Notes under the pieces: model-generated
Seen by the model: only the letters and a program-made list of their open reading frames with translations
Told to the model about the DNA's origin: nothing
Database searches by the model: none
Assembly: GCA_021031555.1 (NCBI GenBank)
Contig: GCA_021031555.1_4954.2
DNA: 16,567 bases
Source: a phage
Reading direction: 5' to 3' (one strand)
In this document: positions 1,438 to 16,450 of the stretch, piece by piece
Numbering within the stretch: the first letter of the stretch is position 1
Layout of the letters: each line of letters opens with the position of its first letter
Made by a program: the position numbers and the translations under genes

Positions 1438-1479
1438 AATTTACACGGTCTTGTGTAATCCGTCAAGAATTATTTTAAA
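1438..1479 (-). promoter_or_regulatory. Conserved promoter element copy 1 (minus strand: UP-like AT tract, -35 TTGACG, 17-bp spacer, -10 TAAATT)
   Basis: Minus-strand reading TTTAAAATAATTCTTGACG-GATTACACAAGACCGTG-TAAATT; RBS and ATG (1402) about 30 nt downstream. Confidence 0.6.
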
Positions 1480-1502
1480 TAAAACCCCGGTTAGTTCCGG
1501 GG
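1471..1502 (-). terminator. Putative minus-strand intrinsic terminator abutting promoter copy 1
   Basis: Hairpin CCCCGG-ttagtt-CCGGGG (1485..1502) followed on the minus strand by UUUUAUUUAAAAUA; sits just after the stop of ORF 1512..1847. Confidence 0.45.
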
Positions 1503-1511
1503 TAATGTTCG

Positions 1512-1847
1512 TTATTCGCCCAACGCTTCTTTCAGTAACCGATACGTTTCAGGACATTTACCGGATCCGCGTTCATGTTCATAAGCTGCACTAATAACAT
1601 CCCAGTTTTCGATCACACCTTTAAACGCCGGACACTTTTCAGCAATCAATGGAAAACTGTTTCTGATTTCCGGTACAGCTTCAACCAGGAACCAGCAACG
1701 GCGAAAATCGGAAACGTCCCGTGGTGCACGAAATCCCCATTCGCCACCCATTTCATTACCCGTGTGAATGCAGACCATCGTTTTAGAGCTTAGTCCGGTT
1801 TCACCAGAGCATAACCACTGAATAATACGTTCCTGTTCTGTTTTCAT
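1512..1847 (-). CDS. Hypothetical protein (111 aa)
   Basis: ORF track; GGAGG RBS; start overlaps the stop of the upstream gene (ATGA). Confidence 0.6.
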   Translation of the reverse strand: MKTEQERIIQWLCSGETGLSSKTMVCIHTGNEMGGEWGFRAPRDVSDFRRCWFLVEAVPEIRNSFPLIAEKCPAFKGVIENWDVISAAYEHERGSGKCPETYRLLKEALGE

Positions 1848-2101
1848 TTGTTTCTAGCCTCCATCATTGCATCAGCCAGGATATAAGCACGGGTTGCGTA
1901 TAGTTCTTCATCCGTTTCATCGGGAAATTGTCCACTTAACATTCCCTGTAAAGCAGCAATTGCAAACTGGTCACGAACGGTTAGCGTTTTCTGGTTGATT
2001 TCTTCCAGGGTTTCCGCTGTCTGGAAATGTGACAGGGAATTTTGACCCTCAATTGATTTATAACCTGTATTGTGGTTACGTTCGGCATCGCTACGTGTCA
2101 T
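1844..2101 (-). CDS. Hypothetical protein (85 aa)
   Basis: ORF track; start overlaps the rdgC stop. Confidence 0.6.
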
Positions 2102-3012
2102 CGTTTCGCTTCCCCACCCAAAGCAGTGATAAGTTGTTTGATCAGCGATGCAAGTTCACCTGTCATTAGTACAAAATCAGCGTCGAATCGTGCCAGACTG
2201 TCTTCAAGGTCAATATCGTCGTTCTGGTCGAGCAACTCATCGCAGAATTTCACACGGTTTAACGTCATGCCGTCAGTTAGCGTAAACGTTACCCGCTGCT
2301 GCCAGTCCAGAGCCAGTTTTGTAACGACTTTTCCGGCTTCGATGTGCGTTGCGATTTCATCACTGGTTAAATCCTGTTTTTTAACGCGTGCAACACCGCC
2401 ATCAGTCAGGATCGCTTTCAGTTCAGCAGAATCACCCATTGTGAAACCTGCTGGCGCGTTTCCTGAACGTACCCACTCCGTTGTTGTCAGTTCAACAGGG
2501 TTTTCAGTTGTCAGTGGGACTACAGGCAGACTACCCAGGGATTTACGCAACAGTGCTAACGCATCTTCAGCTCGTTTAGCACTGGACGCATCAACCACGA
2601 CCAACCCGTTAGTGATATCAATCCACAACTGTGTACGACTGTTTTTAACGAATGCGCGTGGTAACAGGCTGTGCAATACTTCATCTTTCAGGCTGTCTTT
2701 CTCTGTTTTCTTCAGTTTACGCGCCTGTTCCGCTTCCAGTTTGGCGATTCGCGCGTTCAGATGCTGTTTAATGACCGGACCAGGAATAATCTTTTCCTGT
2801 TTCTGGATGGTCAGCAGATATTGCCCGTTAGCCTGGTGAACCAGCGTATGATGTTGTTCAGTTGCCGGAATCCATCCAGTACGCGCCATATCCTGTGAAC
2901 CACATGGGGTAAACCGGAAAGGTAGCAACTGTTGTTCGATGGTTGCCAGTTGTGCCATCAGCGACATAGGATTACTGATGCGGTAGATAATTGCATTTTT
3001 GAAGAAGTTCAT
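2098..3012 (-). CDS. rdgC: Recombination-associated protein RdgC family
   Basis: 304 aa, the length of bacterial RdgC; N-terminal [26 protein letters not shown] and the internal [30 protein letters not shown] block match RdgC as I recall it. AGGTG RBS. Confidence 0.85.
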
Positions 3013-3036
3013 GTTTACACCTGTTTAAAGTTGTGA

Positions 3037-3071
3037 TTCAGATAGTCAACCAAAACGATTGACTATCTGAA
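3037..3071. promoter_or_regulatory. Perfect 13-bp inverted repeat TTCAGATAGTCAA-N9-TTGACTATCTGAA
   Basis: Seen directly in the sequence between ORF 3088..3510 and the rdgC start; no U-tract on either side, so operator or RNA-processing hairpin rather than a classic terminator. Confidence 0.45.
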
Positions 3072-3087
3072 AAGTAAACCAATCTGG

Positions 3088-3510
3088 TTAGGCATCACGT
3101 TCAACCGTAATCCCATCAAAGTTCAGTTTTTCACCGATTTTCATTTCTGAAATTTTATCAAATTGATCATCTGTCCAATCTGTCATGTGATATACACCAA
3201 CTAACGACAAACCTTTGTCCTCTGCTGAAATATAACCAGCACTTTCATCACGGGTCGTATAGCGTTTCATAATCTTTTCCTGTTCGTTAAAAGTAGCGAC
3301 AATACGCGGTAAATGGTTTTGAATTTCCAGTGACCAAACACCACGCACTTTGGTTAATTTCCACGTTACACCGTCTTTTTCGTCGTCCGGGATAAATACA
3401 CCGTCGTCTTTATAGATAGCGTTGTACGTCTCACCTACCGTGAACCACGGGCAAGCTTTATGCACCGTTAAACAGGTGAATCCAGTCGGTAAAGTTTTCA
3501 CGATAGCCAA
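3088..3510 (-). CDS. Hypothetical protein (140 aa)
   Basis: ORF track. Confidence 0.6.
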   Translation of the reverse strand: MAIVKTLPTGFTCLTVHKACPWFTVGETYNAIYKDDGVFIPDDEKDGVTWKLTKVRGVWSLEIQNHLPRIVATFNEQEKIMKRYTTRDESAGYISAEDKGLSLVGVYHMTDWTDDQFDKISEMKIGEKLNFDGITVERDA

Positions 3511-3647
3511 TACCTCACTAATTCATTTGTCAGGTCTATAAGAGTCATCAAAAAGCTAATGACAAATATTAAACCGCCGATACCAACTACCCACGGTAAA
3601 ACAGCGATAACCCATGATGGTAGTTTTGAAATCAGCCAGAAAATCAT
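3498..3647 (-). CDS. Small hydrophobic membrane protein (49 aa, MIFWLISKLPSWVIAVLPWVVGIGGLIFVISF...)
   Basis: Hand translation; RBS AAGGAACAGGAA before the ATG; below the ORF-track size cutoff. Confidence 0.35.
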   Translation of the reverse strand: MIFWLISKLPSWVIAVLPWVVGIGGLIFVISFLMTLIDLTNELVRYWLS

Positions 3648-3784
3648 TTCCTGTTCCTTCTTTTCTTCGCCTCGCGTTTGGCTTTTGCAATACCTGTTTT
3701 ACGATGTGGTTGTTTACGGTCAGTAATAAGTCGTTGTGGTGGAATACCCCACAACGTGTTAGTGGAACCTAATAATTTAATCAT
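3644..3784 (-). CDS. Small basic protein (46 aa, lysine/arginine-rich C-terminus)
   Basis: Hand translation; stop overlaps the next ATG; no clear RBS. Confidence 0.25.
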   Translation of the reverse strand: MIKLLGSTNTLWGIPPQRLITDRKQPHRKTGIAKAKREAKKRRNRK

Positions 3785-3795
3785 GTAATCTAAGA

Positions 3796-4062
3796 TCATA
3801 CGTTCACCACTTTTAAATCAGGTGTCAGGCTACGATGGTCGTGATGACCGTTCATAGTAAATGAGAAAGTGTAATCGCACTGCTCACCGTCGAATGTGAA
3901 GGGGATTTGAAACCCTGTATCGTCAGTGATGCGAACTTTAACCGGGTATTCAGTTTGCGGATCGACCGCTACAACAGTGCCGAATGGTTTAGATTTGCGA
4001 CGTGCGAGAATTTCTAACAGTCGTGGACTGGTGATTTCTACGTGTTGACCAGTTTTAAACAT
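3796..4062 (-). CDS. Hypothetical protein (88 aa)
   Basis: ORF 3796..4089 trimmed to the ATG at 4062 with GGAG 8 nt upstream; the ATG at 4089 falls inside the promoter. Confidence 0.55.
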   Translation of the reverse strand: MFKTGQHVEITSPRLLEILARRKSKPFGTVVAVDPQTEYPVKVRITDDTGFQIPFTFDGEQCDYTFSFTMNGHHDHRSLTPDLKVVNV

Positions 4063-4094
4063 GGTGATAACTCCAGTTGTTTTACACAAACTGA

Positions 4095-4136
4095 AGTCTA
4101 TCTAATAATGTGTAAACCGTCAAGAATTATTTTAAA
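4095..4136 (-). promoter_or_regulatory. Conserved promoter element copy 2 (-35 TTGACG, -10 TAGACT)
   Basis: Minus-strand TTTAAAATAATTCTTGACG-GTTTACACATTATTAGA-TAGACT; overlaps the 3' end of ORF 4098..4313. Confidence 0.55.
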
Positions 4137-4313
4137 TTGTCCGTCACTGTCTGCAGCGTAACAAATACCGTGACTGTAGATTGTCGCAGTTCGTGTAATG
4201 CGTTGATAGTCTGAGCATTGGTTACGAATACGCAGGTCGTAACCGGACTGTATGATAAGCCAGGTTGCAATGATGGCGAGTAATTTTAAAACGTATCTGA
4301 ACATGTTCCACAC
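4098..4313 (-). CDS. Small signal-anchored or secreted protein (71 aa)
   Basis: ORF track; hydrophobic N-terminus MFRYVLKLLAIIATWLII then a polar region with two Cys; AGGAG RBS. Confidence 0.5.
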   Translation of the reverse strand: MWNMFRYVLKLLAIIATWLIIQSGYDLRIRNQCSDYQRITRTATIYSHGICYAADSDGQFKIILDGLHIIR

Positions 4314-4430
4314 TCCTGTTTGATAGTTTCAGGGTAGTGTGGAACTGGCGAAGATGGTATAGGATTTACGATAATTTAACAGGGGTTTCGACTGGTAAGT
4401 TGTTTATGACTGACTTTTCACCTTTCCCAA

Positions 4431-4526
4431 CTAAGTTCGCATTGCCAGTGCAACAATCAACACCATTAACATTACTCCAACTACCACACCGACTACAAAT
4501 GCACTAACTAAACCAATCAAACTCAT
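4431..4526 (-). CDS. Small hydrophobic peptide (31 aa, MSLIGLVSAFVVGVVVGVMLMVLIVALAMRT)
   Basis: Hand translation; GGAGA RBS 7 nt upstream; ATG overlaps the stop of the upstream ORF. Confidence 0.35.
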   Translation of the reverse strand: MSLIGLVSAFVVGVVVGVMLMVLIVALAMRT

Positions 4527-4810
4527 TTCAATGTCTCCACATGTAACTGCCAGTTTTTAGTAGCATCCTTGCGACGTTTAATCTTTCTACCTAATCCGTG
4601 AGTACCCATTTTTAAAATCGCATGGTTATTTTGTACATCAACCACTTTGTAGAAATAACCACGAGGTGACAACCAAGTCTAACCTACTTCAAAATGTTTA
4701 TCCACTTTTTCAACCCTCCACCCATATTTGGCACGATTCATAGCAGTCCGTTCATCATTCGTTGTGAACAGTACACGCCCGGATTTATGACAAATGTTCC
4801 AAGTCGTCAT
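4523..4810 (-). pseudogene. ORF interrupted by a single in-frame amber codon (TAG at 4679..4681): 43 codons, TAG, 51 codons
   Basis: Hand translation MTTWNICHKSGRVLFTTNDERTAMNRAKYGWRVEKVDKHFEVG*TWLSPRGYFYKVVDVQNNHAILKMGTHGLGRKIKRRKDATKNWQLHVETLK. This falls in an approximately 550-bp stretch (4314..4861) with no ORF of 60 aa or more in the track. Confidence 0.3.
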
Positions 4811-4861
4811 TTTGCTAATACACCATTAATGAAAATTAGCATGTAGAATAAACATTACGGG

Positions 4862-5020
4862 TCATAATTCATAAACCTTAAAACTACTGCCTGAATAGCG
4901 ATGTTTACCACACAACTTACAACGGTGTTCCTGAGTGGCATAGTTACGTTCATCCCCGTGGATAGTACGATATAAATACCATTCGTGTTTGCAGAATAAT
5001 CGTTTGAAAAATATCTTCAT
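4862..5020 (-). CDS. Small Cys/His-rich protein (52 aa, FCKHEW...HRCKLCGKH)
   Basis: Hand translation; ATG overlaps the stop of gene 5020..5214 (TGATG). Confidence 0.35.
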   Translation of the reverse strand: MKIFFKRLFCKHEWYLYRTIHGDERNYATQEHRCKLCGKHRYSGSSFKVYEL

Positions 5021-5214
5021 CAATAACCCCTCCTCGACTGGTAATCAATTTTCTTCAGTGATTGTTGCACAATCTGCCAGGACGATAACATGAATAATTG
5101 CGCATACTGCCCCAGCGCTAAATTTCGTGGTTTATCCTGATAGGCGTAAATGGTCGCAACGTCATCAGCTTCCAGACGGATCCGCCACGGTGTCAGAGTT
5201 GGTTTATCACCCAT
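5020..5214 (-). CDS. Hypothetical protein (64 aa)
   Basis: ORF 5020..5250 begins at a TTG with no RBS; the internal ATG at 5214 has GGAGA about 10 nt upstream. Confidence 0.5.
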   Translation of the reverse strand: MGDKPTLTPWRIRLEADDVATIYAYQDKPRNLALGQYAQLFMLSSWQIVQQSLKKIDYQSRRGY

Positions 5215-5428
5215 GTTCGATGCTCTCCAGTAGTTCACGAATGTTTTCAATTACACATTGTTTTGTCTGAGTAGTGACACACACCCCATCAGTGCGACCA
5301 AACGTATTCAGGACTGTTTGAAGCATATAAGTCGTAAGTTCAGTATTATAAAGTTTTACGAATATTGAAAGGTCACCACCAATTTCAACAGTGTCTACAT
5401 TATCTTCAAAATATGAAAATGTAGTGTC

Positions 5429-5539
5429 TTAAAAATGAACACAGTAAACGGCATTTTGCCCGTATTCAGGTTGTGCATTACGTTCAAGACGAACGGCAAG
5501 AACTTCTTTAAATAATTCGTTGTGGTCTTTAATTTTCAT
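5429..5539 (-). CDS. Small protein (36 aa, MKIKDHNELFKEVLAVRLERNAQPEYGQNAVYCVHF)
   Basis: Hand translation; AGGAG RBS; first ORF downstream of promoter copy 3. Confidence 0.4.
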   Translation of the reverse strand: MKIKDHNELFKEVLAVRLERNAQPEYGQNAVYCVHF

Positions 5540-5571: not shown

Positions 5572-5613
5572 AGTCTGACACCACCTCTGTAATCTGTCAA
5601 GAATTATTTTAAA
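5572..5613 (-). promoter_or_regulatory. Conserved promoter element copy 3 (-35 TTGACA, -10 CAGACT; weakest -10 of the set)
   Basis: Minus-strand TTTAAAATAATTCTTGACA-GATTACAGAGGTGGTGT-CAGACT, in the divergent region between the minus cassette and terL. Confidence 0.5.
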
Positions 5614-5676
5614 TCTCTGTCACCACCAATCACCCATGGTAAACTGTACAGAACAGTTACAAACGGACCGATAATC

Positions 5677-7540: not shown

Positions 7541-7566
7541 GCCCCGGAACTGTCCGGGGCTTTTTT
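7541..7566 (+). terminator. Intrinsic terminator
   Basis: GCCCCGGA-actg-TCCGGGGC followed by TTTTTT; preceded by an A-tract, so weak activity on the minus strand is possible. Confidence 0.7.
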
Positions 7567-7841
7567 CAACGTCTGAAAGATGAAAGAACAGCGAGGCTAA
7601 CAGAACCTAAACCGAATATGACAGCGTATGTTAGCTGATGTTGAAGTTTCACAAAACCGTAATAATCGCTTTGTAATTCTACGATGTCAAAAGCAATTGA
7701 AAAACTGGTTACCAGCAACATGATTGAAAGAACACGAATCAGAGCAACTGCTAATCCTATCACCGCTTGTTCTTTTTTCTCAGTTGTAATAACGACAACA
7801 ATCATTAACAGAAGTGAAAAAGCAATGTACATGTATTCCAT
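7566..7841 (-). CDS. Small membrane protein with three predicted TM segments (91 aa)
   Basis: ORF track; three hydrophobic stretches and a short basic C-terminus (SFRR). Confidence 0.55.
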   Translation of the reverse strand: MEYMYIAFSLLLMIVVVITTEKKEQAVIGLAVALIRVLSIMLLVTSFSIAFDIVELQSDYYGFVKLQHQLTYAVIFGLGSVSLAVLSSFRR

Positions 7842-7846
7842 AATGA

Positions 7847-7939
7847 TTAGTCCCGATAAACTTCAGCACACCCATAAACTTTATCAGGGTTGTAAACCTG
7901 TTCAGCTTGTAACGCACCCTGACACTGTTCGAACGTCAT
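7847..7939 (-). CDS. Possible small ORF (30 aa)
   Basis: Hand translation; no convincing RBS; fills the gap between two cassette genes. Confidence 0.2.
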   Translation of the reverse strand: MTFEQCQGALQAEQVYNPDKVYGCAEVYRD

Positions 7940-8001
7940 AATACGTTCTGTCACAGGTTCAATAGCCACACTATGCAGAACAAGCACCAGTACGTAACCA
8001 A

Positions 8002-8331
8002 TTAACATTTTCTTAGAGTCTCCCGCCAGTTCAGCCCGTGTAGGTTTACTTTACATATATGAATAAACGGAATATCAGGATCACACCATGAGCTACCGCT
8101 AATGTATGGGTCGTGTTCCCACGCGTAAACTTCACCATCAGCATCAGTAGTAATAACTGTATAGTTTTCTGGTATAGTTACTGACAATCCAAAATACATT
8201 ACAGTTTTATAAAGACCCATTTCAACCAGTGTCATTTTACAATCTGGTGCTTCTTCGTGGATATCCCACGATTTACCACAGTGTGAACACTGATATTCAT
8301 CGTTACAGCGAATAGCGTTTACATGATTCAT
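8002..8331 (-). CDS. Cys-rich hypothetical protein (109 aa; CNDEYQCSHCGK...APDC)
   Basis: ORF track; GAGGAAGA RBS. Confidence 0.6.
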   Translation of the reverse strand: MNHVNAIRCNDEYQCSHCGKSWDIHEEAPDCKMTLVEMGLYKTVMYFGLSVTIPENYTVITTDADGEVYAWEHDPYISGSSWCDPDIPFIHICKVNLHGLNWRETLRKC

Positions 8332-8343
8332 GATTATTCTTCC

Positions 8344-8679
8344 TCAGTTACGGATGATACCGTTGACGGAATGTGAATTAGTACATGACTTTGTAGTAAT
8401 ATTTCCATTAACTGTTTCGATATTACCACTATCCCCAGTAACAGAAACATTACCATTAACCGTTTTGATATTTCCACTGTTTCCTGAAATGTTAACGTCA
8501 CCGTTAGTCGTTTCAATGGATTCAACATCACCATAAACACTGATCGATATGTTACCAACCAGATTACCATCAACCTGTATGCCATCAACAATTACTTTAT
8601 CACCGTTAATTTCAAATTTACGTCCTGTAAATTCCCTACCGTCAATTATTACTTTACCGTTTCTCATATTTATTTTCAT
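8344..8679 (-). CDS. Beta-solenoid-like repeat protein (111 aa)
   Basis: ORF track; tandem degenerate repeats GNIKTVNGNVSVTGDSGNIETVNGNITT rich in G, N, V, I, T; start overlaps the upstream stop (ATGA). Confidence 0.6.
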   Translation of the reverse strand: MKINMRNGKVIIDGREFTGRKFEINGDKVIVDGIQVDGNLVGNISISVYGDVESIETTNGDVNISGNSGNIKTVNGNVSVTGDSGNIETVNGNITTKSCTNSHSVNGIIRN

Positions 8680-8987
8680 TTAACTGTCTCCGGTACAAAC
8701 CACATTGACGCGAGATACGCACACCCGGCAATTTTATGTTCGTGTTTAGGTTCGAAACTACCCAGAATTACATTGATGTGTGCATGGGCCTGTTTAAAGT
8801 TCACACCGTTAACAGCAACTGCGTATTCTTTCAGACCATTGAAAAACCATTTGCTAACCCACTGATTCCACGGGTTAGAATTTTCAAAAAATTCTTTCGG
8901 AATACTACCCATCGCCGGGAGAAATTCAGCAATGTTTTTAGGTCCAAAAGCAATATCCAGTTGTGTAATATTTTCATTCGGTTTCAT
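8676..8987 (-). CDS. Hypothetical protein (103 aa)
   Basis: ORF 8676..9011 trimmed to the ATG at 8987 with AAGGGTGA RBS; the ATG at 9011 falls at the predicted transcription start. Confidence 0.6.
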   Translation of the reverse strand: MKPNENITQLDIAFGPKNIAEFLPAMGSIPKEFFENSNPWNQWVSKWFFNGLKEYAVAVNGVNFKQAHAHINVILGSFEPKHEHKIAGCAYLASMWFVPETVK

Positions 8988-9018: not shown

Positions 9019-9059
9019 AGCATAATCGCACGTTTGCAATTCGTCAAGAATTATTTTAA
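9019..9059 (-). promoter_or_regulatory. Conserved promoter element copy 4 (-35 TTGACG, -10 TATGCT)
   Basis: Minus-strand TTAAAATAATTCTTGACG-AATTGCAAACGTGCGAT-TATGCT. Confidence 0.6.
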
Positions 9060-9081
9060 CACCGTGCAAAAAAACCATCAC

Positions 9082-9090
9082 TGATATAAC
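9082..9090 (+). promoter_or_regulatory. Candidate extended -10 (TGATATAAC) upstream of the portal gene
   Basis: TGnTATAAC about 40 nt upstream of the ATG at 9130; a near-identical TGATATAAT precedes the head-morphogenesis gene. Confidence 0.3.
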
Positions 9091-10485: not shown

Positions 10486-10488
10486 ATG

Positions 10489-10520
10489 AAAAAGGGACCA
10501 GTAACGGTCCCTTAATTTTA
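10489..10520. terminator. Bidirectional intrinsic terminator between convergent genes
   Basis: aaaaaGGGACC-agtaac-GGTCCCttaatttt: A-tract, 6-bp GC stem, T-tract, so U-rich on both strands; between the portal stop (10485) and the stop of the minus gene (10518). Confidence 0.65.
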
Positions 10521-10850
10521 CTTAGTTTCAGGTTGCACGATTGACAGTAATTTACTCGCTTCATCAACCGCAGTCTGAATACGAGTCTGTAACGGATAAC
10601 TGTTGTTGATCGCACGTTCCAGCGTTTTATCAAGCAGTTGCAGTTTGACTTCATCATCGCCAGTGAACGCGTACATATCAGCAACGACCTCCTTAAACTG
10701 TGATGCTTGCTCAACAATAGTCGTGGTTACAATGTATTTCCAGACTTTGTTAAGTAGTTTAAATTTCACTTCGTTGTCAGCAACTGCATCAACCAGAATT
10801 TCAGCAGCAGTCTTGTCATATTTAACAAGCTCAAGAATTTCAAAACGCAT
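10518..10850 (-). CDS. Hypothetical protein with an internal duplication (110 aa)
   Basis: ORF track; AGGAGA RBS; internal repeat DNEVKFKLLNKV / DDEVKLQLLDKT. Confidence 0.6.
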   Translation of the reverse strand: MRFEILELVKYDKTAAEILVDAVADNEVKFKLLNKVWKYIVTTTIVEQASQFKEVVADMYAFTGDDEVKLQLLDKTLERAINNSYPLQTRIQTAVDEASKLLSIVQPETK

Positions 10851-10865
10851 TTAAGTCTTCTCCTG

Positions 10866-11210
10866 TCAGTTAACATACTTCGCGATCAGTTTATCACAGT
10901 CCTCGCGACAGGTAGCATACTTAAACAGGTCACTTGCTGCTTCTGCCCGGTAGTCAGTATCAATGGTGTAATGTTCATTGACATAGTTATAGGCTGCAAG
11001 ATAATTGCTGAACATCCCCGTGGTTACCACTTTCGGTTGTTCCCTTACGACCTTACCGTTAAACAGATATGCGATTAACAGAATCAGACCACCGATCACA
11101 GGACTTGTGAGAAATGCGATAAAGAACCATACACCAGGGTTACGACCTGTTTGTTTGGCAACACCCGCGACAACCAGAGAGAAAAGAACCCATAAAATAG
11201 CGAATGACAT
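10866..11210 (-). CDS. Membrane protein, two N-terminal TM helices plus soluble C-terminal domain (114 aa)
   Basis: ORF track; AAGGAGG RBS; first gene after promoter copy 5. Confidence 0.6.
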   Translation of the reverse strand: MSFAILWVLFSLVVAGVAKQTGRNPGVWFFIAFLTSPVIGGLILLIAYLFNGKVVREQPKVVTTGMFSNYLAAYNYVNEHYTIDTDYRAEAASDLFKYATCREDCDKLIAKYVN

Positions 11211-11240: not shown

Positions 11241-11282
11241 AGGTTACACGTCCTTGTGTAATCCGTCAAGAATTATTTTAAA
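11241..11282 (-). promoter_or_regulatory. Conserved promoter element copy 5 (-35 TTGACG, -10 TAACCT)
   Basis: Minus-strand TTTAAAATAATTCTTGACG-GATTACACAAGGACGTG-TAACCT; overlaps the stop codon of ORF 11273..11521. Confidence 0.55.
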
Positions 11283-11521
11283 TTATCGTAGACCGGCGGT
11301 AAGCCCATTGCGACCTGTACAGACCGTTTTTCATATTCCTCCCGAAGTTTCTGAAGCTGTTCAATACCGATGTCACAACCACGCATAATATCAGCGCACA
11401 GGTCGTTGTAGGTCGCTTCAGATTGCTTGCTGTGTGGGTAATCAACACAGGATGGATCTGCAATAATGACTTTCGGCAGATATGCGACAGTATCGCCCAT
11501 TGCGTTCTTAAATATCGTCAT
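11273..11521 (-). CDS. Hypothetical protein (about 82 aa)
   Basis: ORF 11273..11530 begins at a GTG; the ATG at 11521 follows the upstream stop by 2 nt. Confidence 0.5.
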   Translation of the reverse strand: MTIFKNAMGDTVAYLPKVIIADPSCVDYPHSKQSEATYNDLCADIMRGCDIGIEQLQKLREEYEKRSVQVAMGLPPVYDNLK

Positions 11522-11523
11522 AG

Positions 11524-11985
11524 TTAGCACCCGTGATTAAGTTCCTGACCTGGTTGAACACGAGTACCACAATATTTACAAACATAGCGCCACTCAAAAC
11601 CGGGCATTGCTAACACTTTACGATAACCAGCATCATAAATTTGTTTTGCAGAATTAAGAGGATCTACACCATTGTGATCGATGATTTGCAAAATTTCATC
11701 AATAGCCTTTTCACGTTCTTTCGGAATAGGTCTGAAGTTTTCCGCGTTACCTACAATAAACGATTGTGTACCGTCATCAGGCTTTAACCATATATCATCA
11801 CCATGGTAACCTAATACCGTCACCTTCACCCAATCGTGATCAACGCTTGCTAACCACTCGCATACTGTACCGACAGGTGGTAAACCTTCACCATCCCATT
11901 GTTGTTTTTCATTCACACAGTCAGGACAAATACCATATTTTTGGTCACTGTTATCACGCGTGTGTTTTTCACAAAAACTTTTCAT
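11524..11985 (-). CDS. Zinc-ribbon-like protein with a WDG-LPPVG domain (153 aa)
   Basis: ORF track; N-terminal CEKH..CPDC and C-terminal CKYCG Cys pairs; central WDGEGLPPVGTVCEWLASVDHDWVKVTVLGY resembles the protein at 15158..15388. Confidence 0.6.
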   Translation of the reverse strand: MKSFCEKHTRDNSDQKYGICPDCVNEKQQWDGEGLPPVGTVCEWLASVDHDWVKVTVLGYHGDDIWLKPDDGTQSFIVGNAENFRPIPKEREKAIDEILQIIDHNGVDPLNSAKQIYDAGYRKVLAMPGFEWRYVCKYCGTRVQPGQELNHGC

Positions 11986-12311
11986 AAATACGACCCTATG
12001 ATTGCTGCACAGTTGACGATTGCTAAACGCGTTGCTTTTTCACGGTCTTCCCCGTGGCTAACTGGTTGCTTATAACTAACGCCAGTGTCAGGGTTATTAA
12101 CCGTCACTTCGTTGTCACGAATATCCAGATCCATGTACATGTTAACCATCAGACTGAAAGCATCCTCATTACGTGTAAGAGGGTTCCACAGACGACCATT
12201 GCCTATATCAATACCTTCGTTTATGTAACGTTCGTCGTACGCGACGTAATATTTACCATGGATTTCAGCAGCCCGTGCTGCGTTGACTAATAAATCACGA
12301 TTGTTCATCAT
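11982..12311 (-). CDS. Hypothetical protein (109 aa)
   Basis: ORF track; start overlaps the dut stop. Confidence 0.6.
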   Translation of the reverse strand: MMNNRDLLVNAARAAEIHGKYYVAYDERYINEGIDIGNGRLWNPLTRNEDAFSLMVNMYMDLDIRDNEVTVNNPDTGVSYKQPVSHGEDREKATRLAIVNCAAIIGSYL

Positions 12312-12811
12312 ACCCGTCCTGTTGATCCAAACCCGCCATTACGCTGACTATCAACATCTGGTAATTCTTCCACTTCAACCAAGTTAACAGGTTCAACACG
12401 TTCAACCATAAGCTGACAAACACGTTCACCGTCTGCGATGGTCTGTAATTTCTGCCCGTGGTTAGTCAGCGTAACGTAGTATTCTTCTTTGTAATCACGA
12501 TCACCGATACCCACGCAGTTGATCAGTGACAAACCGTGTTTAAGACTCATGCCGGAACGTGGATAGAATTTAATGCAATATCCGCTATCAACTGACATTT
12601 TCAGACCAGTGGGGATCATAGCGCGGTCGCCGGGCCATAATGCGATTGTTCCTGCAACAACCGGACGTTCCACTTTAGCGCCTGATTCTGTGAATATAGT
12701 TACCGATTCTTCCCACAGGCAAGCACGAACGTCTAACCCTGCGCTGTCTGGTGTTGCACGTGTCGGAAGTTCAGCGTGGGGTGTTAGTTTTTTTATATAC
12801 AGGTTAGTCAT
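12308..12811 (-). CDS. dut: dUTP pyrophosphatase (dUTPase)
   Basis: 167 aa with the five dUTPase motifs in order: SAGLDVRA, PRSGMSLKHGL, GIGDRDYKEEY, RVCQLMV, RNGGFGSTG; GAGGA RBS. Confidence 0.9.
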   Translation of the reverse strand: MTNLYIKKLTPHAELPTRATPDSAGLDVRACLWEESVTIFTESGAKVERPVVAGTIALWPGDRAMIPTGLKMSVDSGYCIKFYPRSGMSLKHGLSLINCVGIGDRDYKEEYYVTLTNHGQKLQTIADGERVCQLMVERVEPVNLVEVEELPDVDSQRNGGFGSTGRV

Positions 12812-12845: not shown

Positions 12846-12888
12846 ATGTTAGTGTGGTCGCTTGCAATGTATCAAGAATTATTTTAAA
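12846..12888 (-). promoter_or_regulatory. Conserved promoter element copy 6 (-35 TTGATA, -10 TAACAT with 18-bp spacer)
   Basis: Minus-strand TTTAAAATAATTCTTGATA-CATTGCAAGCGACCACAC-TAACAT; drives dut. Confidence 0.5.
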
Positions 12889-12918
12889 CTTCTGTCAACG
12901 TTAACCAATGAGGAATAA

Positions 12919-14158: not shown

Positions 14159-14162
14159 CACG

Positions 14163-14171
14163 TGATATAAT
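14163..14171 (+). promoter_or_regulatory. Candidate extended -10 promoter TGATATAAT
   Basis: Exact TGnTATAAT; predicted start site falls inside the left arm of the terminator hairpin at 14174..14201. Confidence 0.35.
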
Positions 14172-14173
14172 CG

Positions 14174-14201
14174 GCCTCAGTGTGTTAACTGAGGCTTTTT
14201 T
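14174..14201 (+). terminator. Intrinsic terminator whose 3' arm contains the RBS of the next gene
   Basis: GCCTCAGT-gtgtta-ACTGAGGC followed by TTTTTT and then ATG at 14202; the GAGG Shine-Dalgarno is part of the 3' stem arm. Confidence 0.65.
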
Positions 14202-15161
14202 ATGGCTACTAAAGACCCATACCCAGATATTTCAGACAAATATGATGCTCGCATTCGTGAAGCACTTGATGTTGTGTGGGAAAACGTGCGTCGTAGTGAG
14301 TCGTTAGCTAACCTGGAATACATCATTGAAACTCAGGGTATTACCGGATTACTCCCAATTCTTGAAACACTCCCTGATGAACTTAGTGCACAGTTGCGTC
14401 CGGTTATTGAAGATGCGATCGCCGAATCAGGTCGTGTAGTCGTTCAGGTTCTACCGAAAGCGGCTGTGACAGGTCCGGTTGTGTTCAGTCTGGTCACCCC
14501 ACAGGTCAGTACATACATCAACAACTATGTCGGACAACTGATCCGTGAAGTCAGTGATGAAACAGTCAAAGCTGTTCAGATTGCTGTTAACCAGGGTGTG
14601 GTAACCGGACGAAATCCGCGTCAGATAGCCCGTGATTTTCGATCGTCAATAGGGTTAACCACACGGCAGGAAATGACGGTTCAACGTCTGCGATCAGCAC
14701 TGGAAAAAGGTGAAGCAGGTTATATAAACAGTCTGACCACTGTTACAGACAGTGCGAAGAACGCTGTAAGTGCCGGGAAACTATCACAGGCGAAGATTGA
14801 CCAGATAATCGAACAGACACGTTTACGTTACGTAAAACAGCGCACAGAAACAATAGCGCGTACTGAATCACTTCGTGCTGTATCCGTTGGTCAGGACCAG
14901 GCAATACGTCAGGGACAGATTACCGGGACTATTAGTAATGAATTGCTGAAGCGCTGGTTATATAGAAAGGATGGTCGGACACGTGATGCGCATATTTCCA
15001 CAGGTGAAACGAACGGCTGGATACCAATGGACAGACCGTTTTCAACGCCGTTAGGACCACTTATGTTCCCTCGTGATCCTAACGGTAGTGCCGCGAACGT
15101 GATTAATTGCCGTTGCAGGGTACAGTACAGTTTACCGGAAGATATAGGTTCGTTGGGTTAA
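14202..15161 (+). CDS. Head morphogenesis protein, Mu F / SPP1 gp7 family
   Basis: 319 aa; C-terminal region RTESLRAVSVGQ...W..RKDGRTRDAH...NVINCRCRVQY fits the Mu-F-like signature (R.TE...W...D.RTR..H...NCRC). Confidence 0.75.
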   Translation: MATKDPYPDISDKYDARIREALDVVWENVRRSESLANLEYIIETQGITGLLPILETLPDELSAQLRPVIEDAIAESGRVVVQVLPKAAVTGPVVFSLVTPQVSTYINNYVGQLIREVSDETVKAVQIAVNQGVVTGRNPRQIARDFRSSIGLTTRQEMTVQRLRSALEKGEAGYINSLTTVTDSAKNAVSAGKLSQAKIDQIIEQTRLRYVKQRTETIARTESLRAVSVGQDQAIRQGQITGTISNELLKRWLYRKDGRTRDAHISTGETNGWIPMDRPFSTPLGPLMFPRDPNGSAANVINCRCRVQYSLPEDIGSLG

Positions 15162-15388
15162 TCAGGTTCACGCCAGTCAAGAGGTCGCACATCACATAAC
15201 AGACGAACATTATCTTCAAATTTTATGTTTATCCTGTGATGTGCCGTATCATTTTCATAAACAGAAGGCCATATTTCATAACCCTGAACAGTTCGTACCA
15301 CCCACTTGTTAATGCTTGCCAGATGGATCAACACTTCACAACCAACGGGAGGAAGGTTTTTACCATCCCAAATCTGTTTCATTCCCAT
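15158..15388 (-). CDS. Small protein with a WDG-LPPVG domain (76 aa)
   Basis: ORF track; WDGKNLPPVGCEVLIHLASINKWVVRTVQGYEIW resembles 11524..11985; stop overlaps the head-morphogenesis stop (convergent). Confidence 0.55.
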   Translation of the reverse strand: MGMKQIWDGKNLPPVGCEVLIHLASINKWVVRTVQGYEIWPSVYENDTAHHRINIKFEDNVRLLCDVRPLDWREPD

Positions 15389-15399
15389 AGCGGTTACTC

Positions 15400-15579
15400 C
15401 TATTTCTCCTGATTTACAGCATGTTCAATATCAGCCAGTGCTTTCAATTCATGTTCCCAATATTCGTGATTTTCAAAATCTTCATCACGTTGTTTTTGAA
15501 GTAAGTCACGATAAACATGAATATGAGTGCTGATCATATCAGCAAGATTTGAATGACCTTTGTAATCTATATTTTTCAT
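15400..15579 (-). CDS. Hypothetical protein (59 aa)
   Basis: ORF 15400..15627 trimmed to the ATG at 15579 with AAGGAA RBS. Confidence 0.45.
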   Translation of the reverse strand: MKNIDYKGHSNLADMISTHIHVYRDLLQKQRDEDFENHEYWEHELKALADIEHAVNQEK

Positions 15580-15790
15580 TATTTTCAGATTCCTTAATTT
15601 CCTGCAGAAGTTTGAAACTGTAGTCACCTATTTTTCGATCGAACCACGGTTTCTGTGTTTTTGCATAATGATATGCTTTTTTACCGTAAACAGAGTGTGC
15701 ACCATAACTACCGAACTGACATTTCGGACACCCGACACCGTTGTTAAATATCCATTCACAGGAAGCACACACTCGTAGTTTAGCGATCAT
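15539..15790 (-). CDS. Zinc-ribbon-like small protein (83 aa; CASCEW...CPKC)
   Basis: ORF track; AGGAG RBS. Confidence 0.5.
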   Translation of the reverse strand: MIAKLRVCASCEWIFNNGVGCPKCQFGSYGAHSVYGKKAYHYAKTQKPWFDRKIGDYSFKLLQEIKESENNEKYRLQRSFKSC

Positions 15791-15796
15791 GGTAAC

Positions 15797-16072
15797 TTAC
15801 TCCTGTTTCTCCCCGCAGAACGGGCAATAAGACATTTTGATGTTGGTTTCCAGGCGTGTGAAGTTCTTCGCCAGTTCACCGTTTTTCTTTTTAGCACGGT
15901 ATGCAAGACGATATTTCAACATAACGTGAGTTTTACCTGATTCAAGTCCAAAACACTGATTATCCCAGCCAACTTTATCAAACAGGTTAGTGCTGACTTC
16001 CGAACCTACTGGTACTTTTTCCATCAGACGTTTTTGAAGTTCGTCACCAACTTTTTTCATGCAATCACACAT
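15797..16072 (-). CDS. Cys-rich small protein (91 aa; MCDC...CPFCGEK)
   Basis: ORF track; GAGG RBS; ATG overlaps the upstream stop (TAATG). Confidence 0.55.
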   Translation of the reverse strand: MCDCMKKVGDELQKRLMEKVPVGSEVSTNLFDKVGWDNQCFGLESGKTHVMLKYRLAYRAKKKNGELAKNFTRLETNIKMSYCPFCGEKQE

Positions 16073-16233
16073 TATGCATACCTCGATAGGCGTTTTAATT
16101 TAACGATCAACCTTGTGACTTTACTCCAGTCAGATTCAGTAAAATCGTCCACATCTTTAGCCCATAACTCATTAACATGTCGTGGGTTATATGGTTCTTT
16201 CTTGACAGGCTGTTTCCGTTTCTTTTTACCCAT
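16072..16233 (-). CDS. Small basic protein (53 aa, MGKKKRKQPVKKEPYNPRH...)
   Basis: Hand translation; coupled to the downstream gene; weak GGGGAA RBS. Confidence 0.35.
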   Translation of the reverse strand: MGKKKRKQPVKKEPYNPRHVNELWAKDVDDFTESDWSKVTRLIVKLKRLSRYA

Positions 16234-16236
16234 AGG

Positions 16237-16365
16237 TTATTCCCCAGGGTGACGGATGTTTAGATCCGGGAGAATTTGCATCATCGCCACACGAGGCATC
16301 ACAAGAAATGCCGAATATGACAACCCGAACCACGTATGTAGGTCTTTTCGATAACTATTGTCCAT
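16237..16365 (-). CDS. Possible small ORF (42 aa), first after promoter copy 7
   Basis: Hand translation; weak AAAGG RBS; about 40 nt downstream of the predicted -10. Confidence 0.25.
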   Translation of the reverse strand: MDNSYRKDLHTWFGLSYSAFLVMPRVAMMQILPDLNIRHPGE

Positions 16366-16408
16366 CGCCTTTACCTTTTTGAGTTATGCCCGATATTGGG
16401 TTGAGTTA

Positions 16409-16450
16409 AAGATACCCCACCGCTTGCAATCCGTCAAGAATTATTTTAAA
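16409..16450 (-). promoter_or_regulatory. Conserved promoter element copy 7 (-35 TTGACG, -10 TATCTT)
   Basis: Minus-strand TTTAAAATAATTCTTGACG-GATTGCAAGCGGTGGGG-TATCTT. Confidence 0.6.

Follow-up and report, generated by a model that had tools for sequence, protein, structure and literature searches.

A nearly invariant 26-bp block as the probable front half of promoters heading small non-structural gene blocks in 9NA-like phages

Why does one short element recur, in a single orientation, in front of the leftward genes of a phage? We investigated this question in a stretch of 16,567 nucleotides of phage DNA (the window), in which rightward virion genes alternate with leftward cassettes of small ORFs. 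Its source is a 9NA-like siphophage (Nonanavirus/Sashavirus); E. coli phage PJ16 matches 73% of the window at 95% identity. The sequence-only reading had reported seven copies of the element, one at the head of every minus-strand cassette. When GTCAAGAATTATTTTAAA was searched with at most one mismatch, seven matches on one strand were indeed detected, five exact and two with one mismatch, against a chance expectation of 0.06 (mean of 200 shuffles, none of which reached seven). These 18-mers start, all on the plus strand, at 1462, 4119, 5596, 9043, 11265, 12871 and 16433; copy 4 lies one base off its earlier coordinates (18-mer at 9043-9060). The motif TTGA[CGT]NN[AT]TT[AG]C alone recovered exactly these seven sites in a scan of the window. 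Furthermore, all seven minus-strand gene runs of the window start with exactly one copy, and two copies run into the 3' ends of ORFs, as had been described (Table 1).

Aligning the copies and searching relatives, as the earlier reading had proposed, yielded one invariant block and located the element in related phages. The seven-copy alignment contains 20 invariant columns in a single block, composed of TTAAAATAATTCTTGA, TT and CA. The two 5' flanks described as conserved, TTGTGTAATCC and TTGCAATCC, are exact in only three copies, but their TGYAAT core on the plus strand, which is ATTRCA on the minus strand, is conserved. Judged from sequence, the seven repeats quite probably all represent one promoter front half of 26 bp, almost without variation, that precedes blocks of small non-structural genes in 9NA-like phages.

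Read leftward, the copies show TTTAAAATAATTC-TTGAC(G/A)-n-ATTRCA, a spacer of 17-18 bp, TAnnnT in six of seven cases, a leader of 24-37 nt, a Shine-Dalgarno sequence and ATG. The -35 box, previously given as TTGACG, has this form in most copies, with TTGACA in copy 3 and TTGATA in copy 6. The predicted spacing was confirmed (17 bp in all copies but one, which has 18 bp), as was TAnnnT in six of the seven -10 boxes, the exception being CAGACT in copy 3. By our own estimate, TAnnnT occurs at one of three spacings with a chance of ~0.07 per site, and its presence in six of seven copies is therefore not due to chance. Beyond each copy a Shine-Dalgarno sequence and an ATG follow, 24-37 nt past the predicted start, in agreement with the ribosome-binding sites and minus-strand gene starts noted before; the ORFs thus opened encode 36-167 aa. 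Scanned for generic sigma-70 promoters, the window gave 34 sites versus 35.1 in shuffles, with no excess; five of the copies were listed, each scoring only 9 of 12. It is thus the extended repeat and its setting, and not the quality of the hexamers, that carry the promoter call. As for individual copies, copy 3 has no counterpart at the equivalent place in PJ16, the promoter and leader of copy 5 match a non-orthologous PJ16 copy (27425-27488) at 94% identity, and the ortholog of copy 6 in phage AVIO78A (GenBank MZ726797) is annotated as a generic sigma-70 promoter. Among the cassette genes, the RdgC ORF (2098-3012, cassette B) was matched by Pfam with E = 1.7e-116; a Pfam search of the six small ORFs of cassette C gave no match.

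Table 1. Predicted promoters, cassettes and terminator-like hairpins of the window (promoter assignments and transcript starts are sequence predictions).
Feature	Position	Strand	Details
Promoter copy 1	1438..1479	-	TTTAAAATAATTC; -35 TTGACG 1466-1461; 17-bp spacer GATTACACAAGACCGTG; -10 TAAATT 1443-1438; predicted start ~1431
Promoter copy 2	4095..4136	-	-35 TTGACG 4123-4118; 17-bp spacer; -10 TAGACT 4100-4095; overlaps 3' end of ORF 4098..4313
Promoter copy 3	5572..5613	-	-35 TTGACA 5600-5595; 17-bp spacer; weak -10 CAGACT 5577-5572; divergent from terL
Promoter copy 4	9019..9060	-	GTTAAAATAATTC; -35 TTGACG 9047-9042; 17-bp spacer; -10 TATGCT 9024-9019; divergent from portal gene
Promoter copy 5	11241..11282	-	-35 TTGACG 11269-11264; 17-bp spacer with dyad TTACAC-N6-GTGTAA; -10 TAACCT 11246-11241; overlaps 3' end of ORF 11273..11530
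Promoter copy 6	12846..12888	-	-35 TTGATA 12875-12870; 18-bp spacer; -10 TAACAT 12851-12846; heads dUTPase cassette
Promoter copy 7	16409..16450	-	-35 TTGACG 16437-16432; 17-bp spacer; -10 TATCTT 16414-16409
Predicted leftward transcript starts, copies 1-7	1431, 4088, 5565, 9012, 11234, 12839, 16402	-	
Cassette A (copy 1)	1020..1402	-	70-aa ORF 1190-1402, ATG at 1402; ORF 1020-1220; convergent with terS
Terminator-like hairpin of cassette A	1028-1015	-	
Cassette B (copy 2)	1512..4062	-	seven ORFs including RdgC; first ATG 4062; terminator 1503-1484 at end
Intrinsic-terminator-like hairpin	1484..1503	-	ACCCCGGAACTAACCGGGGT then TTTTATTT; ends cassette B, five bases before copy 1
Cassette C (copy 3)	4098..5539	-	six small ORFs; first ATG 5539
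terL terminator	7541-7560	+	faces cassette D
Cassette D (copy 4)	7566..8987	-	five small ORFs; first ATG 8987; convergent with terL
Cassette E (copy 5)	10518..11210	-	114-aa hydrophobic ORF, ATG 11210; DUF2560 ORF; two-way hairpin 10492-10513 at end
Cassette F (copy 6)	11273..12811	-	dUTPase 12308-12811 and three ORFs
Cassette G (copy 7)	15158..16365	-	five small ORFs; first ATG 16365; convergent with head-morphogenesis gene

We then examined the relatives. PJ16, 9NA, Carvaje and e270.2 carry about 9-12 copies per genome on both strands, so that the single orientation reported earlier holds within the window but not genome-wide, where copies instead point the same way as the gene downstream (34-37 of 41 copies, four genomes). 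The link to gene starts is present as well: 34 of the 41 copies have a Shine-Dalgarno sequence, a start codon and an ORF of 35 aa or longer, 18-39 nt past the predicted transcript start, compared with 8.6% of random positions. Besides RdgC and dUTPase, the genes served include DNA polymerase, helicase/primase and methylase operons. In the genomes examined, no copy directly heads terS, terL, portal, capsid, tail or lysis genes. In the PJ16 group, one copy heads an ORF leading into the capsid operon. Each genome also contains two degenerate copies, with TATACG or TAAACA as the -35, antisense to flanking replication genes. The element is conserved in Escherichia, Salmonella and Klebsiella phages and takes a variant form in a Proteus phage, PM-CJR, whose copies uniformly have TATGGCTTGAC in place of TAATTCTTGAC at -39..-37. 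This uniformity, despite a very similar host polymerase, may reflect lineage-specific reading or homogenisation between copies. Apart from re-use in prophage morons, the element is restricted to the 9NA-like clade.

The re-use was seen in E. coli and Klebsiella prophages with no other DNA in common with 9NA-like phages. There the exact 26-mer heads a DUF1902(HicB-like)/HicA module, and a version with one mismatch heads a YafO module; homology to the E. coli copies starts ~9 nt upstream of the 26-mer. These morons place the block, including GGATTGCA, before toxin-antitoxin genes and have a separate dyad, TTACC-N5-GGTAA, after the -10. The 26-mer also occurs as a Yersinia CRISPR spacer. The presence of the same block before prophage morons argues that no 9NA-specific activator is needed, and the promoters likely work with host polymerase alone.

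At single-base level, positions outside the search pattern were strongly conserved in the 41-copy alignment: A-28 (39/41), T-27 and T-26 (41/41 each), R-25, C-24 (40/41) and A-23 (37/41), followed in the -10 region by T-12 (25/41), A-11 (30/41) and T-7 (29/41), with C/A around +1. Fourteen positions are invariant across all 41 copies. When the portal-side ortholog of copy 4 was aligned in nine genomes, -47..-31, -28..-26, -24 and -23 were invariant, and changes occurred at -30, -29, -25 and -22..-13. Since invariant positions are flanked by varying neighbours at orthologous sites, ATTRCA (-28..-23) in the spacer is under base-specific selection. To our knowledge, the sigma-70 holoenzyme makes no base-specific contacts at -28..-23 of E. 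coli promoters, and the fourteen invariant positions together with ATTRCA exceed what UP and -35 recognition demand there. The block may thus have another reader.

Such a reader had been anticipated in the sequence-only reading as an operator or phage-specific factor superimposed on the promoter. The promoter half of that proposal agrees with the geometry, co-orientation, conservation and re-use seen in sequence; the operator half fared less well. We regard it as possible, though doubtful, that the block, especially ATTRCA, is also bound by a phage or host regulator switching all ~12 promoters jointly off or on, for example from early to late; this would add to the promoter reading and not replace it. 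Beyond the conservation of ATTRCA among the 41 copies and at orthologous sites, and the lack of holoenzyme contacts mentioned above, this idea draws on the retention of ATTRCA in the Proteus phage variant (TTGACAnATTACA), on the uniformity of that variant at -39..-37, as expected of a lineage-specific reader protein, and on the dyad TTACAC-N6-GTGTAA across the spacer and -10 of copies 1 and 5. However, the invariant block is asymmetric, with neither the dyad nor the direct repeat typical for dimeric regulators, and the TTACAC/GTGTAA dyad is limited to those two of seven copies and tied to one paralogous promoter-leader subfamily. Moreover, no HTH or other DNA-binding Pfam domain was found among 30 minus-strand ORFs of the window, no candidate protein emerged, and a 9NA-specific factor is absent from the unrelated prophages in which the block precedes morons. 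Two other views of who reads the element fit poorly. It is very unlikely that the element acts on the plus strand, whether as a two-way promoter or as a signal for the rightward virion genes, such as a promoter or terminator: copies 3, 4, 6 and 7 do lie in divergent gaps 31-70 nt before plus-strand genes, the block can be read by us as TTGCAA-17 bp-TAAAnn (TAAACT at copy 6), and its plus strand includes AATTATTTTAAA, which matches part of the UP element of rrnB P1 exactly, but the -10 so read lacks its final T in copies 3, 4 and 7 (TAAATC, TAACAC and TAAAGA), the -35 becomes GTGTAA in copies 1 and 5, and copies 1, 2 and 5 have no downstream plus-strand gene. Genome-wide, orientation tracks the adjacent non-structural gene on either strand, the block contains no hairpin, and between element and ATG the virion genes show conserved extended -10-like sites of their own, without -35. 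We give hardly any credence to the idea that an RNA polymerase or alternative sigma factor encoded by the phage, instead of host sigma-70, reads the block, as with the 23-bp promoters of T7-like phages. The block's length of 26 bp, ~12 copies and invariance resemble promoters of single-subunit phage polymerases; against this, the annotations of four complete genomes (PJ16, 9NA, Carvaje and PM-CJR) list neither an RNA polymerase nor a sigma gene, the block holds a consensus -35 and TAnnnT follows at the proper distance, prophage morons use the block as well, and its conserved part lies upstream of -23 with a variable start region, the reverse of T7-type promoters.

A role in recombination also had to be weighed, in which the block is mainly a short homology for cassette swaps between phages and promoter activity keeps it conserved. 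Such a role has been proposed for PeSL (promoter-early stem-loop) elements of T4-type phages, in which a terminator stem-loop is fused to an early promoter (Arbiol et al. 2010, PMC2839356; Comeau et al. 2014, PMC4122927). Both PeSL and the present element are short repeated promoter modules bounding variable, mostly ORFan genes at insertion, deletion or replacement borders of close relatives. Cassette content is indeed mosaic, with relatives covering 60-73% of the window at 82-96% identity, and homology breakpoints fall at block edges (1479, 4110, 5585-5591, 5620, 11284 and 16425). In nine genomes, 87 breakpoints lie in module zones versus 21 expected; owing to relatedness among the genomes, these counts lack independence. 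In addition, promoter-leader modules of ~65 nt are common to non-orthologous sites at 80-94% identity, and 9NA-like phages share the bare 26-mer with unrelated prophages, as described above. However, BLAST segments are expected to cross a universally conserved block and end at its far edge, and in controls within the window breakpoints amounted to 0.71 per 31-nt zone at internal starts versus 0.29 at first-gene starts, and to 0.92 versus 1.14 per 111-nt zone. Internal gene boundaries thus collect breakpoints at least as often, and the element is not demonstrably a better crossover point than any gene junction. Furthermore, the terminator-promoter composite that defines PeSL occurs in one of seven copies only, copy 1, which directly follows a terminator hairpin, and the carriers are siphoviruses of ~55 kb, unlike the T4-like myoviruses that host PeSL. 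We therefore consider a primary role in recombination unlikely.

Our preferred explanation, which we hold with good though not full confidence, is that host sigma-70 reads a family of promoters for non-structural and probably early genes, whose portable front half is driven by the UP-like tract and the -35. The A-tract TTTAAAATAATTC at -45..-39 would offer the alpha C-terminal domain a proximal UP-like site, and CTTGAC would be a near-consensus -35 for sigma region 4, followed after a 17-bp spacer by a variable, mostly weak -10 (TAnnnT without TG extension). Since the upstream half is invariant and the -10 weak and variable, heavy dependence on UP-like tract and -35 contacts is expected. Transcripts would start ~7 nt past the -10, often at CA, with a leader bearing the first gene's Shine-Dalgarno sequence. 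In the window, seven such promoters would each drive one accessory cassette (RdgC, dUTPase and many ORFans) located between, and antisense to, rightward virion genes, and several cassettes would end at hairpin terminators. We infer promoter identity itself, UP function, early timing and the switch from sequence, early timing from gene content only. The literature searched contained no transcript 5' ends, in vitro transcription or reporter data for any 9NA-like phage.

Strong sigma-70 early promoters, such as those of T4, T5 (P_N25, P_25 and P_26) and T7 (A1-A3), are present in multiple copies, are used by unmodified host polymerase, have an A/T-rich tract before the -35 and conserved features beyond the two hexamers, and head blocks of small genes for host takeover and nucleotide metabolism. 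The 9NA-like element is likewise multicopy, probably read by unmodified host polymerase, furnished with an A/T-rich tract before the -35, conserved beyond the hexamers and placed at the head of small-gene blocks, but it combines a nearly invariant block (-48..-23) with a weak, variable -10 in place of their near-consensus -10, and is scattered among and antisense to virion genes rather than grouped in an early region. We know of no counterpart of ATTRCA in the T4, T5 or T7 early promoters. With the rrnB P1 UP element it has in common an A/T tract just before the -35 and the 12-mer AATTATTTTAAA; however, the phage tract is inverted relative to the -35, ~6 bp closer to it, and corresponds to no more than the proximal half of a complete UP element. 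In lambdoid phages and prophages, morons consist of a promoter, a gene and a terminator inserted between late genes. Our cassettes are similarly self-contained units between virion genes, several with their own terminator, and the same block heads the Klebsiella and E. coli prophage morons; in contrast to classical morons, which are single genes with unrelated promoters, expressed from a repressed prophage, they number about a dozen in a virulent phage, are multi-gene, include replication operons and use one standard promoter. Mycobacteriophage stoperators are asymmetric repressor sites within or between genes, away from promoters, that block elongation. Like these and other phage operators, the element is short, asymmetric, repeated many times per genome and oriented with transcription, but every good copy belongs to a promoter-like unit before a gene start, and we know of no cognate repressor.

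The repeat is thus a real and conserved, yet fairly ordinary, type of phage signal, with a conserved spacer motif on top. With element promoters on the one hand and a different signal before virion genes on the other, the 9NA-like genome would have two promoter classes, whose timing could be set apart by a factor that targets sigma region 4 or the alpha C-terminal domain.

Seven matches to the 18-mer GTCAAGAATTATTTTAAA, five of them exact and two with one mismatch, are present in the 16,567-bp window, against a mean of 0.06 copies in dinucleotide-preserving shuffles, none of which reached seven. When the copies were aligned on the minus strand, 20 invariant columns formed one block, TTAAAATAATTCTTGA, followed a few bases on by TT and CA. 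The sequence-only reading had placed the copies correctly to within one base; the two exact 5' flanks that it gave turned out to be a looser TGYAAT, that is, ATTRCA on the minus strand. The window belongs with the 9NA-like siphophages, to which it is related as a mosaic: its identity is 95% to the E. coli phage vB_EcoS_PJ16 (across 73% of the window), 96% to Bas82, 82-88% to the Salmonella phages 9NA, Sasha, Sergei and Solent, and about 80% to the Klebsiella phage Carvaje. Seven leftward runs of small ORFs are interleaved with its rightward virion genes, and exactly one copy stands at the head of each run, so that the element indeed heads every minus-strand cassette, as had been proposed. Copies 3, 4, 6 and 7 lie in divergent gaps, and copies 1, 2 and 5 sit within longer leftward stretches, copies 2 and 5 being the pair already noticed to overlap, by its last codons, the preceding ORF. 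Pfam matches among the 30 leftward ORFs were limited to RdgC, dUTPase and DUF2560. The cassettes are of the moron type, each with its own predicted promoter, between the terS, terL, portal and head-morphogenesis genes, and a recognisable hairpin terminator closes some of them, not all.

Coordinates of the element copies and associated features
Feature	Record	Position	Strand	Remark
Element copies 1-7, 18-mer start	window	1462, 4119, 5596, 9043, 11265, 12871, 16433	+	promoter reads on the minus strand
terS	window	171-923	+	rightward virion gene
terL	window	5677-7440	+	rightward virion gene
portal	window	9130-10485	+	rightward virion gene
head morphogenesis	window	14202-15161	+	rightward virion gene
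Hairpin terminator	window	1015-1028		closes a cassette
Hairpin terminator	window	1484-1503		fused upstream of promoter copy 1
Hairpin terminator	window	10492-10513		two-way
Extended -10-like site, terL	window	5637-5645	+	TGGTAAACT
Extended -10-like site, portal	window	9082-9090	+	TGATATAAC
Extended -10-like site, head morphogenesis	window	14163-14171	+	TGATATAAT
Extended -10-like site, portal				CACTGATATAAC, example
Extended -10-like site, head morphogenesis				GTGATATAAT, example
Extended -10-like site, holin				CACTGATATAAT, example
Extended -10-like site, terL				CCCGTGGTAAACT, example
Extended -10-like site, tape measure				CCCGTGTTAAACT, example
Dyad before terL	window	5620-5676	+	AACTGT-ACAGA-ACAGTT
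Head-morphogenesis leader	window	14163-14204	+	with hairpin
Promoter copy with hairpin leader	PJ16	52293		hairpin in opposite orientation
Degenerate copies	9NA	38216 (+), 45049 (-)		-35 is TATACG or TAAACA
Degenerate copies	Carvaje	37905 (+), 44702 (-)		-35 is TATACG or TAAACA
Degenerate copies	PJ16	39767 (+), 47365 (-)		-35 is TATACG or TAAACA
Inverted promoter pair	PJ16	17572-17589 (-), 17885-17902 (+)
terL-side copy	9NA	4007	-
terL-side copy	e270.2	6164	-
Iterated-motif regions	window	1-170, 16451-16567
Iterated-motif regions	PJ16	17590-17885, 57480-57756 plus 1-324
26-bp exact repeat	PJ16	17694, 57700		CATAGATTTCGTCATGTTTATTTTTT
Prophage block locus	E. coli EC25	2505-3037
Prophage block locus	E. 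coli A16	2001-2716
Prophage block locus	IMG/VR L026	4737		plus nine similar loci
CRISPR spacer	NZ_CQAZ01000023.1	~6797-6856	-	element -47 to -16

On the minus strand, each copy reads TTTAAAATAATTC, a -35 box, one variable base, ATTRCA, about ten variable bases and a -10 box; its repeated 26-bp front half (-48 to -23) is called the block here. The spacer is 17 bp in six copies and 18 bp in copy 6. TTGACG, previously given as the -35 of all seven copies, was found in five of them, with TTGACA in one and TTGATA in one, and TTGAC is kept in 38 of 41 copies across four genomes. A -10 box of the form TAnnnT is present in six copies, as had been counted (TAAATT, TAGACT, TATGCT, TAACCT, TAACAT and TATCTT), and copy 3 has CAGACT. 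With the seventh base after the -10 box taken as the predicted transcript start, at 1431, 4088, 5565, 9012, 11234, 12839 and 16402 for copies 1 to 7, all seven copies precede a Shine-Dalgarno sequence and an ATG with predicted leaders of 24-37 nt, which agrees with their proposed position upstream of a ribosome-binding site and gene start. The ORFs opened by these ATGs are 36-167 aa long; mechanical ORF calls put some starts further upstream, at GTG or TTG, and the ATG starts are the credible ones. Folding of the seven predicted leaders gave RNA structure not beyond that of shuffles (z -0.24 to +0.58), and an Rfam search of the whole window gave no match at gathering thresholds.

A generic sigma-70 consensus scan found 34 sites in the window and 35.1 in shuffles, and recovered five of the seven copies, each with merely 9 of 12 matches. 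The evidence for promoters therefore lies in the extended repeat and its context, not in hexamer quality. In the 41-copy alignment, the UP-like tract is conserved only at -48 to -37 (TTTAAAATAATT) and positions -59 to -49 are not conserved; the AAAA at -45 to -42 would agree with the proximal UP subsite (AAAAAARNR). Since the -10 boxes are weak (3-4 of 6 consensus matches), variable and without a TG extension, these promoters should rely heavily on upstream contacts, with AAAA as a putative proximal UP-like site for the alpha C-terminal domain and CTTGAC as a near-consensus -35. The plus-strand 12-mer AATTATTTTAAA recurs exactly within the rrnB P1 UP element, which in E. coli lies between murI and the 16S gene; because the phage tract is inverted and lies about 6 bp nearer the -35, we regard this match as a curiosity. 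The ortholog upstream of the dUTPase gene in phage AVIO78A is annotated in GenBank as a generic sigma-70 promoter, and the GenBank records of 9NA, PJ16, Sasha, Solent and Carvaje contain no annotated promoters. Judged from sequence and gene context, the element is most likely a family of host sigma-70 promoters for non-structural genes.

We scanned the 9NA-like relatives PJ16 (57.8 kb), 9NA (52.9 kb), Carvaje (56.9 kb) and e270.2 (first 50 kb), each of which carries about 9-12 good copies, on both strands. The single orientation reported earlier thus holds for the window and is a property of the window only. Plus-strand copies in the relatives head rightward non-structural gene blocks, the leftward DNA polymerase operon is headed by tandem copies, and no copy in these genomes immediately precedes a terS, terL, portal, capsid, tail or lysis gene. 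The 41 pooled copies, defined by at most two mismatches to the 18-mer, are conserved outside the search pattern at A-28 (39 of 41), T-27 and T-26 (41 of 41 each), R-25, C-24 (40) and A-23 (37), with a moderate -10 signal (T-12 in 25, A-11 in 30, T-7 in 29) and C/A around +1. The link to gene starts extended to this set: 34 of the 41 copies are followed by a Shine-Dalgarno sequence, a start codon 18-39 nt after the predicted transcript start and an ORF of at least 35 aa, compared with 8.6% at random positions. Copies that failed this test are mostly degenerate, with TAAAC or TTGAG as the -35. In the replication module, each genome has two degenerate copies that are conserved in intergenic gaps and run antisense to the genes on either side; they may have decayed, may be antisense promoters or may be something else. 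The genes served include those for RdgC, dUTPase, polymerase, helicase/primase and methylases, a superinfection-immunity-like ORF and many ORFans, and this gene content suggests early or middle expression.

Downstream of the terL-side copies of 9NA and e270.2, no gene is annotated for about 250-270 nt; this interval may be a long leader, or may hold an unannotated small ORF or a non-coding RNA. In PJ16, two promoter copies about 300 bp apart form, together with about 50 nt of identical downstream sequence, a large inverted repeat flanking a repeat-rich region before the capsid operon; an additional ORF, inserted ahead of the prohead protease gene, has the rightward copy at its head, and the inverted pair is also found in AVIO78A, BDX09P1 and 536P12. 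The short motifs TAATACAGAACGTGTA, TTAGCTGTAAA/TTAACTGTAAA and TAGTGCA are iterated upstream of terS and beyond copy 7 in the window and in the corresponding regions of PJ16, which contain in addition a 26-bp exact repeat. At the equivalent places, upstream of terS and of the prohead protease gene, the Proteus phage PM-CJR shows two duplicated ~300-bp regions that carry 13 copies of AAAGTGAAACA. Such iterated-motif regions are possibly late regulatory regions, an origin, or pac-related.

When the orthologous portal-side copy was aligned across nine genomes, positions -47 to -31, -28 to -26, -24 and -23 were invariant, and -30, -29, -25 and -22 to -13 varied. Invariant bases beside variable ones thus indicate that the block is under base-specific constraint, beyond shared ancestry. 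PM-CJR, whose TerL is 60% identical and whose genome architecture is the same, carries its own version, TTTAAAATATGGCTTGACAnATTACA, in about ten places, and this differs lineage-wide from the 9NA-like elements at -39 to -37; thus, TTTAAAATA, CTTGAC and ATTACA are kept across genera. The Vibrio phage 1.089.O (TerL 49% identical) lacks the element.

The multi-copy pattern, with 7-13 places per record, was confined to the 9NA-like clade in a set of 50,697 phage records. A set of IMG/VR prophage contigs that have no other DNA in common with 9NA-like phages also contains the exact 26-mer TTTAAAATAATTCTTGACGGATTGCA, once per contig. In annotated E. coli genomes, the block lies 35-40 nt before a DUF1902 (HicB-like) and HicA pair, beside a BRO-N gene, and a one-mismatch variant precedes a module of a small unannotated ORF and YafO that adjoins an integrase. 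The hicAB-like copy has the dyad TTACC-N5-GGTAA after its -10, and homology between a Klebsiella prophage contig and the E. coli copies starts about 9 nt upstream of the block. We rejected a 9NA-like phage as the source of the toxin-antitoxin cassette, since the DUF1902 protein is encoded in no 9NA-like record, so the promoter block alone is shared. Because the block is present in only 8 of 5,426 complete E. coli genomes, and there in prophages, a host origin was rejected. The host polymerase alone should be enough to express toxin-antitoxin morons from a repressed prophage, and the presence of the block at their head would argue against the need for a 9NA-specific activator. A search of 185,579 species-representative genomes yielded four matches, three of them probably chance and the fourth, the only one in Enterobacterales, a CRISPR spacer. 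The Yersinia pekkanenii array has 27 repeats (GTTCACTGCCGTACAGGCAGCTTAGAAA) and 32-nt spacers, one of which is TTAAAATAATTCTTGACGTATTGCACTGATGT; its best match among the compared phage genomes has four mismatches, all in the variable part. The spacer matches the element from -47 to -16, and thus an unsampled relative carries the same block.

The virion gene blocks of PJ16, 9NA and Carvaje have a second signal, (c)cGTGnTAnAnT, 30-45 nt before the ATG and with no recognisable -35. These extended -10-like sites are kept at orthologous positions and also precede capsid and terS genes in the relatives. The pattern TGNTAWAMY is not enriched in the window overall (11 matches against 6.8), but three of its four plus-strand matches are exactly the virion-gene sites before terL, portal and head morphogenesis. 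The rightward motif ACAGAACNGT, tried as a late promoter, was matched by the terL site alone and was replaced by this pattern. From their sequence, the virion-gene sites look like an extended -10 class of candidate late promoters; if so, the non-structural promoters would be -35/UP-dependent and the virion promoters -35-independent. In the head-morphogenesis leader, the site is followed by a hairpin (GGCCTCAGTGTGTTAACTGAGGCT), TTTTT and the ATG. The hairpin is terminator-like, holds the sole Shine-Dalgarno sequence (GAGG) within its 3' arm and is conserved in 9NA and Carvaje with different loops; it may serve as an attenuator or in translational control. One PJ16 promoter copy has as its leader a similar hairpin, oriented the opposite way. 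Before terL, a conserved dyad overlaps the extended -10-like site in the window and its orthologs, and the terL ATG has no clear Shine-Dalgarno sequence upstream.

We considered what else the element might be. A plus-strand or two-way promoter (TTGCAA-17-TAAAnn) was rejected, as the last -10 T is absent from three of the four copies in divergent gaps, and no plus-strand gene follows in the case of three copies. T7-like promoters are conserved mainly around -17 to +6, the reverse of the present case, in which conservation spans -48 to -23 and the start region is variable, and a promoter for a T7-like single-subunit polymerase was likewise rejected; the annotations of four complete genomes of the group, PJ16, 9NA, Carvaje and PM-CJR, list neither a phage RNA polymerase nor a sigma gene. 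As for recombination, the PeSL of T4-type phages combines a terminator stem-loop with an early promoter, bounds variable genes and is thought to mediate their shuffling (PMC2839356, PMC4122927), whereas here a stem-loop is fused upstream of the promoter only at copy 1, the one terminator-promoter composite. Cassette content is mosaic among the relatives, several homology breakpoints lie at block edges (1479, 4110, 5585-5591, 5620, 11284 and 16425), promoter-leader modules of about 65 nt are common to non-orthologous sites, and in nine genomes 87 breakpoints fell in the module zone against 21 expected under uniformity, about four-fold. However, BLAST segments tend to end at the far edge of any universally conserved block, and breakpoint density is the same or higher at element-free internal gene boundaries of the window, so we make no claim for a special recombination hotspot. 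The element does mark cassette boundaries.

A regulator site superimposed on the promoter block would account for the selection on ATTRCA at -28 to -23, which is retained in the Proteus variant; the sigma-70 holoenzyme is not known to make base-specific contacts there. However, the block (TTTAAAATAATTCTTGACGGATTRCA) is asymmetric, lacking the dyad or direct repeats of a dimeric regulator's operator, the dyad TTACAC-N6-GTGTAA occurs only in copies 1 and 5 and in their paralogous promoter-leader subfamily, and the block presumably functions in prophages that lack 9NA genes; such a site is thus possible, though on balance doubtful. None of the IHF, CRP, Fis, ArgR and Fur sites fitted the block when their consensus sequences were compared with it by eye. 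A broader scheme, which we think unlikely, is that a dedicated factor reads ATTRCA and the lineage-specific -39 to -37, that the block and the -35-less virion sites make up a two-class switch, in which a single protein, through sigma region 4, the alpha C-terminal domain or the block itself, would shut off about a dozen early units together and release polymerase for late genes, and that the front half moves as a unit between virulent phages and prophage toxin-antitoxin morons. A factor that acts on sigma region 4 or on the alpha subunit might make use of two such promoter classes, as AsiA does in T4, but for the present phages this step is speculation; no AsiA-like Pfam match was found among the window ORFs.

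Repeated conserved early promoters are familiar in virulent phages, and the element leaves the general understanding of phage promoters unchanged. The invariant 26-bp front half, the ATTRCA spacer motif, the re-use before prophage toxin-antitoxin genes, the CRISPR spacer and the contrast with the extended -10-like sites seem to be undescribed in the literature searched. A full-text search for the block sequence gave no match; the group's main genomics paper (Zeng et al. 2019) may already list these promoters. The 9NA-like phages (Nonanavirus, Sashavirus and Carvajevirus) are being isolated for therapy and biocontrol, and Bas82 belongs to the BASEL reference collection. For these phages, the probable sigma-70 promoters described here offer a guide to the dozen or so transcription units of each genome, a marker for spotting relatives in metagenomes and CRISPR spacers, and, in the 26-bp block, a compact candidate strong promoter part for Enterobacteriaceae. 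The element would account for the expression of the small genes wedged between virion genes and, together with the extended -10-like virion sites, provides a concrete two-class model of the early-to-late switch.
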